A DNA stretch of 17,615 nt from an uncultured Deinococcales bacterium (GTDB lineage: Bacteria; Deinococcota; Deinococci; Deinococcales; JAAFIG01), in contig CAXTTL010000089.1 of assembly GCA_964247135.1 (NCBI GenBank), positions 1 through 17,615 on the forward strand. Direction: 5' to 3'. This document shows, piece after piece, positions 3,582-10,196 of the stretch. The notes beneath the pieces are model-generated. The model saw only the letters and a program-made list of their open reading frames with translations, did not search any database and was not told the origin of the DNA. How positions within the stretch are numbered: the stretch's first letter is position 1; each line of letters begins with the position of its first letter. Made by a program: the position numbers and the translations under genes.

Positions 3582-5018
3582 ATGGCAGTTTTAAAAACGA
3601 TTCCTCAAAATGCGAGCATCGCGCAATTGCAAGCCTTGCTGGCTGCGGCAAGAATCTCGAGCGCCCAACTGGTCAGGCACTATCAGACGCGAATCTCGAG
3701 CATCGACAAAAATGCTTTGAACAGCGTGCTCGAGGTGAATCCCGATGCGCTTAAAATTGCCCAAAAACTTGATTTGGAGCGGGCTTCAGGGATTTCTCGA
3801 GGATTGCTGCACGGCATTCCGGTGCTGTTAAAGGACAACATCAACACCGCCGACAAACTCCACACCAGCGCTGGAAGCTTGGCGCTGAGAGATTCTCGAG
3901 CTTTGGAAGATGCGGCATTGGTCGCCCAGCTCCGAGCGGCGGGCGCGATCATTTTGGGCAAAACCAACATGACCGAATGGGCAAATTTTATCAGCACCAA
4001 CATGCCCAACGGTTACAGCTCGAGGGGCGGACAGGTCTTAAATCCATACAACAAAAGTTTCAACACGGGCGGCTCGAGCAGCGGTTCTGGCGTGGCGGTC
4101 GCCGCCGATTTGTGTGCGGTCGCAGTGGGCACTGAAACCTCGGGTTCGATCCTCAGCCCCGCCAACAACAATTCGGTGGTTGGCATCAAACCCACCGTGG
4201 GTTTAATCTCGAGGCGCGGGATTGTTCCGATTGCAGCCAGCCAAGACACGGCTGGACCAATGGCGCGAACCGTCGAAGATGCGGCAATATTGCTGGGCGC
4301 AATGACGGGTTTTGACGCGAAAGATACCGCAACCAAAAACGCAAAAAGTTTAAGCGATTACACGGTTTTCCTTGAGAAAGATGGTTTGCGGGGTTTGCGA
4401 TTGGGAGTACCCAGGGATTATTTCTGGCAGCACATCAAGGAAGAGCAAAAACCAATTCTCGAGCAAGCTTTAACCGCGCTTCAAGATGGCGGCGCGGTCT
4501 TGGTCGAAGCCGAAATTGAGAGCGCCCAAGCCGTGGCTCACCTAAGTTATACGGTTTTGTTGTACGAATTCAAACGCGATCTGAACAAATACTTGCGAAG
4601 CCTCGCGCCCGAATTTCCGCGCAGTTTGCTCGAGTTGATTCGCTACAACGAACGCAACCACAAGAAAATGTTGCGCTACGGACAAACCTTGCTGCTGGCG
4701 GCGCAAAGCACGGGCGGCACCAATTCAGAGATTTACAACTACACTCGAGCTGAGGATTTGCGTCTCTCGAGACAGCGCGGTATCGACGCGACCCTCAAAA
4801 AACACAAACTCGACGCACTCGTCATGCCGATGTACTGGGGTGCTCAAATTGGTGCAAAAGCCGGATACCCAAGCGTTTGCGTGCCAGCAGGTTACTCGAG
4901 CGACGGGATGCCTGTGGGTATCACTTTCATGGGCACAGCCTGGAGCGAACCGACTTTAATCCGTGCCGCGTATGGTTTTGAACAATTGACCAAATCCAGA
5001 CGTGCCCCAAAACTTTGA
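3582..5018 (+). CDS. Amidase signature (AS) family amidase
   Basis: LHGIPVLLKDNI (catalytic Lys), GGSSSGS and GTETSGSI motifs of the Ser-cisSer-Lys triad; 478 aa. Confidence 0.93.
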   Translation: MAVLKTIPQNASIAQLQALLAAARISSAQLVRHYQTRISSIDKNALNSVLEVNPDALKIAQKLDLERASGISRGLLHGIPVLLKDNINTADKLHTSAGSLALRDSRALEDAALVAQLRAAGAIILGKTNMTEWANFISTNMPNGYSSRGGQVLNPYNKSFNTGGSSSGSGVAVAADLCAVAVGTETSGSILSPANNNSVVGIKPTVGLISRRGIVPIAASQDTAGPMARTVEDAAILLGAMTGFDAKDTATKNAKSLSDYTVFLEKDGLRGLRLGVPRDYFWQHIKEEQKPILEQALTALQDGGAVLVEAEIESAQAVAHLSYTVLLYEFKRDLNKYLRSLAPEFPRSLLELIRYNERNHKKMLRYGQTLLLAAQSTGGTNSEIYNYTRAEDLRLSRQRGIDATLKKHKLDALVMPMYWGAQIGAKAGYPSVCVPAGYSSDGMPVGITFMGTAWSEPTLIRAAYGFEQLTKSRRAPKL

Positions 5019-5047: not shown

Positions 5048-5139
5048 GTAGGGTGCGCCGTGCGCACCACGGGTAAACGACGGTGCGCACGGCGACCATG
5101 CCCGTTAGGTGCATTTTATGGTCAAGACGTGCACCCTAC
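5048..5139. repeat. Inverted pair of GTAG-type REP palindromes (REPIN-like); second copy interrupted
   Basis: GTAGGGTGCGCCGTGCGCACC (5048-5068) and its exact reverse complement split into GGTGCGCACGGC (5082-5093) and GCACCCTAC (5131-5139). It lies between convergent amidase and pstB. Confidence 0.8.
5094..5130 (+). mobile_element. 37-bp hairpin mini-element inserted in a REP (copy A)
   Basis: GACCATGCCCGTTAGGTGCATTTTATGGTCAAGACGT. Removing it restores the REP exactly. It is 33/37 identical to copy B at 9333-9369. Boundaries are ambiguous by about 1 nt. Confidence 0.7.
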
Positions 5140-7904: not shown

Positions 7905-8939
7905 TTAGAGTGCTTTGCCGCCGTAAGTGATGCTGGCAACGATCTTCTTGGCTTTGGTCAGCGCCGAACCATCAATCTGACCGTAAGCCAGTTGTTCGTT
8001 GATCTTCTGACCGTCAGAGAGCATCCATTTGAGCAAATCCACTAGGCTCTTGGCTTGCTCTGCGGTGCGCTTGCCGTACTTTTGTTCCTTGTAGACCAAA
8101 ATCCAGGTGAAACCCGAGATTGGATAACCGATGTCGCTGTTGGTGAACGAAACCCGAGTGTCGTTCGGCAGTGATTTGGAATCGCTGGCGAGTGCCACTT
8201 CCTTCAGGTTGCCGCCGTCAACGTATTTACCCGTGCTGTTGCGAACAATGCCGTACTCGAGTTTGTTGGCTTTGGCGTACACGGTTTCGACGTAACCAAT
8301 CGAACCGGTGGTTTGTTTGACCAAACCTGCCACCCCAGCGCTCTGAGGTCCGCCGACGCCAACGGGCCACTTTACCGTGCTTTGTGGTCCTTTGGAAACC
8401 GTACCAGCCCAGTCGCTCGAGACTTTGGAAAGGTAATCGACGAAGATGGCTGTGGTGCCAGAGCCGTCAGAACGGTAGACGGGTTGGATTGCCAAATCGG
8501 GCAGCTTGACGCCCATGTTGAGTTTGGCGAGTTTGGCGTCGTTCCATTTGGTGATCTTGCCCAAGTAAATTTGCGCCAGCACATCGCCGGTGAATTTCAG
8601 CTTATCGGGAGCGCCAGGAACGTTGTAAACGGGAACGACTGCGCCGATTGCCATTGGCACGTGAACGATTGCACCTGGGGCGGTTTTCAAGAGTTCATCG
8701 TTCATGAACGCGTCAGAAGCGCCAAAGTCCACAGTCTGCGCAATGATTTGCGTGCGTCCGGCGCCCGAACCGACCGATTGATAATTGACTTGAACGCCGG
8801 TGGCTTTGTTGTATTGGGCGAACATTTCTTGGTAGAGCGGAAATGGAAAGCTTGCGCCCGCACCGGTGATGGTCTTCGCGTCTTGAGCCACAGCAATCGC
8901 CGCAACTGCCAATGCACCTGCAATCAGTAGTTTTTTCAT
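7905..8939 (-). CDS. pstS: Phosphate ABC transporter substrate-binding protein
   Basis: Signal peptide, GAGASFPFPLY, YQSVGSGAG, VDFGASDA and RSDGSGTT motifs; GGAGG SD upstream. Confidence 0.97.
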   Translation of the reverse strand: MKKLLIAGALAVAAIAVAQDAKTITGAGASFPFPLYQEMFAQYNKATGVQVNYQSVGSGAGRTQIIAQTVDFGASDAFMNDELLKTAPGAIVHVPMAIGAVVPVYNVPGAPDKLKFTGDVLAQIYLGKITKWNDAKLAKLNMGVKLPDLAIQPVYRSDGSGTTAIFVDYLSKVSSDWAGTVSKGPQSTVKWPVGVGGPQSAGVAGLVKQTTGSIGYVETVYAKANKLEYGIVRNSTGKYVDGGNLKEVALASDSKSLPNDTRVSFTNSDIGYPISGFTWILVYKEQKYGKRTAEQAKSLVDLLKWMLSDGQKINEQLAYGQIDGSALTKAKKIVASITYGGKAL

Positions 8940-8971
8940 GGATAATTCCTCCGCCGCTGAGTTTGCTCGGC

Positions 8972-8991
8972 AATTGTCATGGCAGCGTCAG
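8972..8991 (-). promoter_or_regulatory. Pho-box-like 11-bp-periodic direct repeat upstream of pstS
   Basis: Minus strand CTGACGC-TGCC-ATGACAA-TT (plus strand TTGTCAT-GGCA-GCGTCAG) resembles the 7-4-7 CTGTCAT Pho box. It matches the site at 9460-9479. Confidence 0.65.
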
Positions 8992-9098
8992 GGCAAAGCG
9001 CGATAACCCGAGCATCAATATTTATGATTTGCTTAGGTTTCTCGAGCGTCCAAAATGCTTTGGCGTGTTCAAAAAATGAGTTGCAATTGTGCCATTTT

Positions 9099-9290
9099 AC
9101 TCTTGACCATAATAAATAAATACGCACCTTCTTGAACCTAAGCCTGCACCGGGCAGGTTCGCTCACGGGCATGGTAGCTCATCTCCGACCCTTCCTACCC
9201 CTTACGGCAGCACTTCAAGACGCACCTTACGGGCGAAACCGCTTCAGGCTTTGGGCGCTTCTCCTGCCTGGCGGGCTACGGTTTGCACAC
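9099..9290 (-). other. Structured non-coding element (candidate ncRNA or MITE) with a mini-element-like 3' module and a nested insert
   Basis: Repeated GCCC-GNNA-GG(TGC) hairpins and stems AAACCG/CGGTTT and CAGGC/GCCTG. It ends in ACCATGCCCGTGAG[insert]GTGCG..TATGGTCAAGA. Confidence 0.5.
9128..9161 (-). mobile_element. 34-bp variant mini-element nested within a family member (copy C)
   Basis: C-GAACCT-GCCC-GGTGC-AGGCTT-AGGTTC-AAGAAG. Removing it restores GCCCGTGAGGTGC in the host copy. Confidence 0.6.
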
Positions 9291-9320
9291 AAATATTCAG
9301 TTGATTCCGATTCGTGCGAA

Positions 9321-9422
9321 AGGATGCAGCAAGCTTCTTGACCATAAAATGCACCTGGCGGGCATGGTCGCAGCATCCCCACAACCCTGTTTTTTGTCGT
9401 AGGGGCGCTGCTTGCTGCGCCT
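9321..9422. repeat. Inverted pair of GTAG/GTGG-type REP palindromes; one copy interrupted
   Basis: GTAGGGGCGCTGCTTGCTGCGCCT (+, 9399-9422) and GTGGGGATGCTGC|TTGCTGCATCCT (-, 9382-9321), the latter split by a 37-bp insert. Confidence 0.72.
9333..9369 (-). mobile_element. 37-bp hairpin mini-element inserted in a REP (copy B)
   Basis: GACCATGCCCGCCAGGTGCATTTTATGGTCAAGAAGC. Removing it restores a REP colinear with its neighbour. Confidence 0.7.
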
Positions 9423-9459
9423 TGCCTCTGCGCTTATTTGCCAGCCGCGTTGCTTTCCC

Positions 9460-9491
9460 TTGACGCTCCTCTGACAATTCCCGTGCATATT
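9460..9491 (+). promoter_or_regulatory. Pho-box-like repeat plus weak -10 upstream of the regulator operon
   Basis: TTGACGC-TCCT-CTGACAA-TT, then CATATT (9486-9491) 6 nt before ATG 9498; same geometry as the pstS site. Confidence 0.65.
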
Positions 9492-9497
9492 GACTTC

Positions 9498-10196
9498 ATG
9501 GTGAGTCATCACAGGTTAACTTTAATTTATGACGAACCCATTGTCCGTGAGGGTTTGCGCTCACATCTCGAGATGGGTGGTTTTGTCGTCAGGACTGAAG
9601 CTTCTGGGGTGCTCGAGCAATCTCGGGTCTCGAGTGATGTCACCGATTTGGTCGTGTTCCACTGGAAGCCCGAGTTGGCGTTCACGGACGCTGTCCATCA
9701 TGTGCCGATGCTGGCGATTCTCGATTCGAGCGCCACGATCAGCGATGCGCTCAGGGCTTGTGACGATTTTGTCTGTTATCCGTTCGACCCGCTTGAACTC
9801 AGCGTTCGGGCGAGGCGTTTGTGCGAGCAGCTCGAGCAGCCTGTGTTTTTGCCGAACGAGCATCAGGCGCAAATCAGTGTCGCGGATTTGCGGCTCGACA
9901 CGCATTTGGGTCGGGCTTGGAAGGATGAACTCGAGCTTCATTTGACGCGCCGTGAGTACGAGTTGCTGACGGTCTTGATGTTGAACGCTGGGCAAGTTTT
10001 AAGCAAACAAACGCTGTTGCGTTCGGCTTGGGGAACAGATTTTAGGGGCAAACCGCGCACGGTAGACCAGCACGTCTCGCAGCTTCGGGCGATTCTGGGC
10101 GACAACCGTGAGGACTCGAGGTACATTTCGACGGTGCATGGGCGGGGTTATGTTTTGAAGGTCAAATCTCAAGATCAATCCATGACGTTAAGCTGA
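9498..10196 (+). CDS. Atypical OmpR/PhoB-family regulator with a degenerate (pseudo-)receiver domain
   Basis: Intact winged helix (LTRREYELL...RTVDQHVSQLR...ISTVHGRGY). The receiver has DLVVFHWKP in place of the Asp-containing motif and YPF in place of KPF. Start assigned to ATG 9498. Confidence 0.85.
   Translation: MVSHHRLTLIYDEPIVREGLRSHLEMGGFVVRTEASGVLEQSRVSSDVTDLVVFHWKPELAFTDAVHHVPMLAILDSSATISDALRACDDFVCYPFDPLELSVRARRLCEQLEQPVFLPNEHQAQISVADLRLDTHLGRAWKDELELHLTRREYELLTVLMLNAGQVLSKQTLLRSAWGTDFRGKPRTVDQHVSQLRAILGDNREDSRYISTVHGRGYVLKVKSQDQSMTLS

Follow-up and report, generated by a model that had tools for sequence, protein, structure and literature searches.

Insertion sequences of the IS200/IS605 group, such as IS608 and ISDra2, are recognized through hairpins and insert in a strand-specific manner 3′ of a short motif with no target duplication. 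These elements carry two different end hairpins, use a fixed target of 4-5 nt, and show a bias with respect to the replication strand. Rolling-circle origins and integron attC sites combine conserved loops or flanks with a free stem and are read on a folded single strand. At the lower end of the size range, a 2008 study of SDR repeats in Nostoc (Elhai) reportedly described mobile repeats of 21-27 nt that insert into one another and into conserved short sequences. A later report places the SDR repeats in Nostocaceae only, and SDR5 is said to insert at the HIP1 palindrome (PMC5861425). Repetitive extragenic palindromes (REPs) are a further point of reference, and one study describes some of them inside other palindromes, along with complementary changes in their stems (PMC3733652). 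Finally, a paper on Deinococcus radiodurans mentions SNRs, numerous small noncoding repeats "of an unusual, mosaic structure" (PMC1978522).

The locus described here comes from the genome of an uncultured Deinococcales bacterium (G000), within a stretch of 17,615 nt that we refer to as the window. An earlier note, made from the letters of the window alone, had flagged a short element nested within another near position 9100. We find that the flagged feature is real and well supported, and that it is unusual in combining a conserved loop with free stems and a precise habit of self-nesting. The repeats concerned, which we call modules, are near the lower size limit of mobile DNA, where the way in which repeats of a few dozen bases move is still unclear.

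Anatomy, covariation, and distribution of the modules

The unit reads C-G-stem5 (5-7 nt), GCCCGNNAGGTGC, 4-8 nt, stem3, and AAGA, usually then AG, for a length of 35-39 nt that is most often 37. The module is a hairpin with a 5-7 bp stem that is free to vary, a conserved 13-nt loop, and a conserved tail, AAGA(AG). Across our two alignments, A1 and A2, GCG is invariant at the 5′ end and C-AA-A is invariant in the tail. The core GCCCGNNAGGTGC occurs 132 times in the 5.09-Mb assembly, and a covariance model built from alignment A2 has at least 141 matches in this genome at E values up to 0.01, a floor given that 150 of 4825 first-look candidates were scored. Within the window, the core is present three times against an expectation of 0.01, a number reached by 0 of 200 shuffles, and chance falls far short of explaining the pattern. 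A number of contigs have an end that falls within a module or an array of modules (for example, C26, C77, C168, C229, and C260), which indicates that the repeats break the assembly and that the copy numbers are underestimates.

The tail and a complementary pair of arms accompany 110 of the core matches in this genome. The commonest arm pairs are GACCAT/ATGGTC (46 copies), GGTTTC/GAAACC (15), GACCC/GGGTC (10), GATGCC/GGCATC (5), and GATCCC/GGGATC (4), followed by many rarer ones. The earlier note had proposed that the family has subfamilies, and the more than 20 arm pairs, or stem types, that we find bear this out.

Its further proposal, that structure is conserved in place of the exact stem sequence, also stands. 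In alignment A2, which comprises 30 copies from six genomes, all 180 of 180 stem cells are paired, and at five of the six stem pairs both partners change (40 cells). A2 has a covariation score of 0.666 as compared to 0.242 for shuffles, 0 of 500 of which reached it, and controls in which the arms were slid show pairing in 17-55% of cells. The rows of A2 were chosen with a stem filter, so we rely on a set of 83 copies that fit a fixed frame without that filter as a check: 69 pair at six of six positions, seven at five, five at four, and two at fewer. Loci gathered from five other genomes, again without the filter, pair at six of six positions in 29 of 32 cases.

One subclass, with stems GCGAGTA, GCGAACA, and GCGAATA, has a 7-bp stem containing tandem G-A/A-G mismatches (GC-GA-xyz / x'y'z'-GA-GC) and is found on contigs C6, C54, C79, C268, and others of G000. 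Its three inner pairs covary. Tandem G-A/A-G mismatches are a stable motif in folded nucleic acids. Folding energies are modest across the family, with z scores of -2.4 for an intact copy, -1.8 for a guest, and -1.1 for a triple nest, and the minimum-energy DNA fold of the GGTTTC type lacks the covarying stem and uses other pairs.

By crude ORF calls, 105 of 150 modules lie between ORFs, 28 lie in called ORFs, and 17 are at contig edges. The modules are oriented without bias to the neighboring genes on the same calls (38 in the same direction and 33 in the opposite one). Two familiar kinds of repeat were considered and set aside. A CRISPR array does not describe the modules, which run head to tail with a 37-nt period, have no spacers, and nest within one another. 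A MITE was rejected in view of arms that differ between subfamilies, the lack of any parent element among our findings, and a right end that equals the left flank in 4 of the 35 copies with a non-AG flank.

The modules are a regular feature of the family to which this bacterium belongs. All 18 genomes sampled from this uncultured Deinococcales family contain the pattern core-N(8-18)-CAAGA, at 1 to 251 copies, and the loop is kept across them while the stems differ. The same pattern gives a single match in 2 of 22 genomes of four other families, and reversed controls give 0-1. Among 301 genomes of the phylum, multi-copy occurrences outside the family are limited to G253 (45 copies), G221 (41), G197 (16), G208 (13), G104 and G161 (8 each), G246 and G302 (6 each), G280 (4), and G110, G174, and G216 (3 each). 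These genomes carry mostly a shorter GGGCAG/CTGCCC form ending in AAGACG. In a plasmid collection, modules match sequences of Deinococcus psychrotolerans, D. peraridilitoris DSM 19664, and Deinococcus sp. QL22, and not of D. radiodurans.

Three side observations concern these genomes. In G208 (L065), two inverted 168-nt repeats at 1856-2023 and 4083-4250, 92% alike, each carry a module; they flank an MFS transporter gene and an ORF with no Pfam match rather than a transposase gene, and a third copy lies 1.4 Mb away. In the genome of the window, the palindrome CTCGAG occurs 33,925 times in 5.09 Mb, or about once per 150 bases, as at window positions 9045-9050. A cyanobacterial origin of this genome was rejected, as GCGATCGC has only 2 copies and no photosystem reaction-centre match is present.

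The nested locus and insertion into empty sites

The flagged stretch lies within a 498-nt spacer between a gene for a phosphate-binding protein (7905-8939, minus strand) and a regulator-like gene (from 9438, plus strand). As the earlier note had claimed, it consists of one element inside another: positions 9100-9177 of the minus strand read CTACCATGCCCGTGAG, CGAACCTGCCCGGTGCAGGCTTAGGTTCAAGAAG, and GTGCGTATTTATTTATTATGGTCAAGAG in turn, which places a 34-nt hairpin module exactly in the loop of a second module. The left half of the host, CTACCATGCCCGTGAG (9162-9177, minus strand; CTACCAT plus GCCCGTGAG), is of a decayed GACCAT type and ends at the insertion point AG^. The guest, CGAACCTGCCCGGTGCAGGCTTAGGTTCAAGAAG (9128-9161, minus strand), is a 34-nt module of GAACCT/AGGTTC type that ends in AAGAAG. 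The right half of the host, GTGCGTATTTATTTATTATGGTCAAGAG (9100-9127, minus strand), is made up of GTGC, a lengthened AT-rich spacer, ATGGTC, and AAGAG. Removal of the 34-mer joins GCCCGTGAG to GTGC and so yields the family core GCCCGNNAGGTGC, just as had been predicted. Two paired positions distinguish the arms GACCAT/ATGGTC from GAACCT/AGGTTC (C-G to A-T and A-T to C-G), again in agreement with the original reading.

A covariance model built from other copies matches the 34-mer at 9128-9163 with 42.3 bits (E 7e-9), and the guest folds as a hairpin at -5.9 kcal/mol (z -1.76). The flagged 80-nt stretch as a whole folds no better than shuffles (z 0.18) because the host is decayed, with CTACCAT in place of CGACCAT and a lengthened spacer. 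The guest is itself altered, its core being shortened to GCCCG^GTGC by the absence of 4 nt (NNAG) relative to a sister copy on contig C24. The missing bases, CAAG in the C24 copy, are exactly those that precede the insertion point of the family, and their loss may mark where a third-level guest once sat or may be a plain deletion.

The host itself stands in another repeat, which we term the scaffold. About 100 copies of the scaffold in the genome are empty and read CTCCCTTCTCYCC-loop-GGRGAGAAG^GGTYGGGGATGAG^..., and a minority are filled at the two marked sites. In the window, the host module sits at the GATGAG^ site of a scaffold whose middle part, GGTCGGAGATGAG, occupies 9178-9190 on the minus strand. 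A second nest (9191-9257, minus strand) occupies the GAGAAG^ site and consists of a decayed GCCCAA-type host (left half 9242-9257, right half 9191-9213) and a 3′-truncated guest of GGTTTC type (9214-9241, minus strand); intact forms of this host-guest pair are present on contigs C113, C172, and C191. The decayed 5′ hairpin of the scaffold, CCCGCCAGGCAGGAGAAG, follows at 9258-9275 on the minus strand. Over a longer stretch, the scaffold reads ...CTCGAGCCACACGTGTAAAAGAAYYAAA-CTCCCTTCTCYCC-loop-GGRGAGAAGGGTYGGGGATGAG-(A)GGGTRG, of which the window copy (9178-9275) is decayed, and the last bases of its G-rich tail change together with the hairpin type; the scaffold may be a mobile element, a small RNA, or a G-quadruplex former.

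Three further features of the window involve REP hairpins. An intact 37-nt module of GACCAT type, copy A (9334-9370, minus strand; 58.3 bits, z -2.43), lies in the loop of a decayed REP-A hairpin with arms at 9371-9382 and 9321-9333. An empty REP-A hairpin, GGCGCAGCAAGCAGCGCCCCTAC, at 9399-9421 on the minus strand represents the kind of site that is filled by modules elsewhere. On the plus strand, another intact GACCAT-type module (5093-5129; 56.7 bits) occupies the loop of the right-hand REP in a REP-B doublet at 5048-5139.

Comparison of such sites across the genome and with relatives demonstrates insertion. Three abundant families of GTAG-headed REPs are present in this genome, most copies being empty (209 of 256 overall) and a minority holding a module or a nest. 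REP-C has 23 copies, with 16 empty, 2 filled in forward orientation, and 5 in reverse; for REP-A (104 copies) the corresponding numbers are 81, 7, and 7, and for REP-B (129 copies) 112, 0, and 11. All of these insertions are at the loop apex. The 11 REP-B modules share a single orientation, reverse to GTAG, whereas REP-A is filled seven times each way; the one-way filling of REP-B fits a requirement that the target strand of the loop carry G or AG.

Orthologous loci were compared between G000 and five genomes of the same genus (G001-G005). At the position of the module at 5093-5129, the REP loop is empty in G001 and G003, contains one GACCAT module in G000, and contains in G004 a GACCAT module with a nested GATTCC guest at AG^GTGC. 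The scaffold is also present at the flagged locus in G004 and G005, where its GATGAG^ site is empty; orthologous loci without the modules, whose absence the earlier note had named among its refuting conditions, therefore do exist. A different gene is found there in G001 and G003. In G002, the right half of the host, GTGCACCTATCTGGTCAAGAG, is all that remains of it and abuts unrelated sequence precisely at AAG^GTGC; this genome lacks about 330 nt of the interval from the regulator gene to the host module (L005, ~870-920), with the junction ...GGTAAG|GTGC.... The two orthologous series are decisive for insertion, and the precise presence and absence of modules at orthologous and paralogous sites shows that modules are insertions.

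The flanks of the copies define where modules land. The preceding base is G in 144 of 149 copies, and the preceding dinucleotide is AG in 114 of 149; after AAGA, AG follows in 108. Among the 35 copies with a left flank other than AG, 21 nevertheless have AG at the right end and in 4 the two flanks are identical, which indicates that this AG belongs to the 37-nt element and is not a duplication. Models with a 2- or 3-nt target duplication were rejected as a general rule on the same flank data. Modules therefore land after G, mostly AG, with no consistent target duplication, and they do so in either orientation and preferentially in unpaired DNA at a hairpin apex. The ends of a module can be slid by 1-3 nt, and some copies have CG, GG, CAG, or GAG in place of AG, so that the cut sites are placed only approximately.

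Modules also enter one another. In this genome, 41 left halves run directly into the beginning of a further module, and the loop position is the same in every case. These junctions comprise 27 host-guest combinations in both directions, and 9 of the 41 reach a third level; on contig C4, for example, three modules are stacked inside a scaffold. Five genomes from four other genera have the same junction 24, 6, 9, 5, and 26 times, compared to 0 for the reversed control. The earlier note had suggested that the family can target hairpins, its own members among them, and this is borne out both by the 41 junctions of 27 kinds and by the filled REP loops (7 of 23, 14 of 104, and 11 of 129). Since the loop of a module carries a landing site of its own, GCCCGNNAG^GTGC, modules pile into one another up to three deep.

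Some composites recur, including GACCAT>GACCCA on three contigs, GCCCCAA>GATTCC>GACCAT on two, and GACCAT(TG)>GAACCT on C24, on C175, and in the window. Such recurrence means that composites are copied as units and that the junction counts exceed the number of independent events; the three GAACCT copies of this genome, which share the host type and the NN (TG), derive from a single composite. Modules also form tandem arrays with a 37-nt period, in which types can mix. The tail of the module carries another landing site, which accounts for these mixed arrays, and their arrangement fits insertion after the AAGAAG tail of a resident copy. A search for half elements was restricted to known arms after a loose definition had given mainly chance matches. 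Orphan right halves and the deletion in G002 start exactly at ^GTGC, several of them after AAG; the numbers are small, and breaks at this position fit cutting after AG.

Candidates for a mobilizing enzyme and competing readings

The search for an enzyme covered the Y1_Tnp domain, of which this genome has four loci (L001-L004), and three RAYT-like genes are present. None of the four loci has a module beside it. GTAG-type REPs adjoin L002, L003, and L004 (on either side and inverted in the case of L002 and L004); L001 is accompanied by neither a REP nor a module. Twelve tnpA loci of other genomes likewise have no modules nearby, and conservation within the family is lacking for the one IS200-type TnpA that this genome encodes (contig C249). 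Of the 19 family genomes, 16 carry Y1_Tnp genes; beyond the family, such genes occur in 8 of 12 genomes with modules as compared to 1 of 12 without, whereas the module-rich genomes G008 (96 copies), G197 (16), and G104 (8) have no Y1_Tnp match. IS110 transposases show a similarly loose association (9 of 12 module-bearing versus 3 of 12 module-free genomes). Both associations may arise simply because some genomes are rich in mobile DNA, and related genomes do not count as independent cases. A search for the reverse transcriptase domain RVT_1 gave no match for 14 of the 19 family genomes and, among the 12 module-bearing genomes outside the family, for 9, closed genomes among them. We see no sign of replication-strand bias, with neighboring copies in opposite orientation on closed contigs and GC skew also examined against orientation.

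Taken as a whole, these results make it probable that the modules are mobile DNA recognized by its structure. The flagged stretch would then represent two members of a family of very small (35-39 nt), non-autonomous mobile DNA elements. A trans-acting protein would recognize the loop, the tail, and the shape of the fold, whatever the stem sequence, would cut one strand of the DNA following the AG that lies on either side of the hairpin, and would rejoin the ends. The cut strand would be pasted after AG in unpaired DNA, in the HUH/Y1 manner of IS200/IS605 or RAYT-like enzymes. This HUH step, drawn by analogy, is a tentative proposal. The scarcity of reverse transcriptases and the absence of an orientation bias relative to genes make RNA less likely than single-stranded DNA as the intermediate. 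It is possible, though doubtful at present, that the modules make up a class of minimal mobile element of their own, a 37-nt hairpin whose loop would be both recognition signal and integration site, moved by an enzyme of a kind other than RAYTs and reverse transcriptases, and kept through the whole history of the uncultured Deinococcales family with patchy spread to cultured Deinococcus.

Several other explanations bear on the same observations. The modules could be an unusual REP family served by a resident RAYT (TnpA-REP) gene, in the same system as the GTAG-type REPs that host them, and their size, copy number, hairpin form, and intergenic clustering are all REP-like. This genome has three RAYT-like genes, most module-bearing genomes contain Y1_Tnp, modules are often inside GTAG REPs, and both REPs inside other palindromes and complementary stem changes are published (PMC3733652). 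We nevertheless consider this reading unlikely: the module has no GTAG or CGTC head, it adjoins none of the four Y1_Tnp loci while GTAG-type REPs adjoin three, most REPs (209 of 256) are empty and many modules lie outside them, the conserved part is the stem in REPs and the loop in modules, and G008, G197, and G104 have modules with no Y1_Tnp match. Covarying stems beside a conserved loop are also the classic signature of a functional RNA, and a possible inner helix in the loop has a single pair that is free to vary, which does so in a covarying manner (CG 11, UA 11, UG 2, other 6 of 30). A structured RNA motif under selection in transcripts, such as a protein-binding or stabilizing hairpin, could accordingly have spread through an RNA copy that was reverse transcribed or reverse spliced. 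The junction AG^GTGCG also bears a resemblance to a splice-type junction, which would suit this reading. It is made rather improbable by the random orientation relative to genes (38 versus 33) and the filling of the same REP loops both ways, by the genomes in which RVT_1 is unmatched (14 of 19 in the family and 9 of 12 module-bearing ones outside it), by stem mismatches that show no excess of G-T over A-C (3 versus 4) and hence no asymmetry, and by the lack of any Rfam match at E values up to 1 in the window region 8800-9500.

A reading that dispenses with a dedicated enzyme invokes template switching, slippage, or gene conversion between hairpins, with the loop kept by selection for a host DNA-binding protein. 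Junctions do show microhomology of 1-5 nt (...AG ahead of the element, ...AAGAAG at its end), composites multiply as whole units, and the hunt for an enzyme found none. Against this, the 37-nt unit is inserted whole, in either orientation, and at one fixed loop position, and the target sequences are unrelated apart from a common G or AG. The stems of guest and host are likewise unrelated, which makes homology-driven conversion hard to invoke, and we regard an enzyme-free origin as very improbable. The earlier note had named local duplication and decay as the alternative to nesting, in which the 34-mer would be a product of chance or local rearrangement inside one repeat. Points in its favor are that both host and guest in the window are decayed and that the three GAACCT copies of G000 share one host type and an identical NN (TG). 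Sister genomes, however, have GAACCT modules in a GCCCAA host (G001), in a GACCCAA host (G003), and alone in unique sequence (G002), so that the independent copies sought by the note are at hand. With these other hosts, 27 kinds of host-guest pair, and the same junction in four other genera, local duplication is refuted and retains a negligible probability.

Structure-recognized mobile DNA thus remains our preferred reading, and the modules offer clean material for its study, with a fixed insertion point and many empty, filled, and doubly filled sites. Their loop is conserved across genera beside stems that covary freely, and the existence of cultured Deinococcus carriers makes experiments possible. 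Identification of the protein that would read the loop could reveal a new activity for structure-guided cutting and joining of DNA. In practical terms, modules break assemblies, create false ORFs, and remodel promoter regions, for instance upstream of the phosphate-uptake operon in the window.

Modules among known repeat systems

A literature search found no description of the module, which is not proof of absence. The SNRs of D. radiodurans come from the same bacterial order and may or may not be related to the modules. Rolling-circle origins and attC sites differ in that they are parts of replicons or cassettes, whereas modules are dispersed 37-nt repeats. Like the Nostoc SDRs, as these are reported, modules are nested, non-coding, and probably mobile repeats of far less than 100 nt. 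They differ from SDRs in their length of 35-39 nt, their occurrence in Deinococcales, their conserved 13-nt loop, and their covarying stems.

The resemblance to IS200/IS605 elements lies in insertion 3′ of a short motif with no duplication (AG in 114 of 149 and NG in 144 of 149 copies). Unlike those elements, a module is a single hairpin, its target is only (A)G, it has no visible strand bias, and no tnpA is linked to it.

The modules also resemble the REP, BIME, and REPIN repeats with their RAYT (TnpA-REP, HUH Y1) transposases (PMC2817692, PMC3116915, PMC3733652); such repeats are non-autonomous hairpins of 20-40 nt, present in hundreds of copies, intergenic, and clustered. In size and copy number the module compares directly with a REP, being a short imperfect palindrome with at least 141 copies that lie mostly between genes. 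In contrast to REP-RAYT systems, 0 of the 4 Y1_Tnp loci of this genome are flanked by modules, and in contrast to REPs, neither strand of the modules in alignments A1 and A2 has a GTAG or CGTC head. The pattern of conservation is the reverse of that in REPs, with a conserved loop and a free stem, and modules, unlike REPs, nest within their own kind precisely at one loop position, up to three levels deep.
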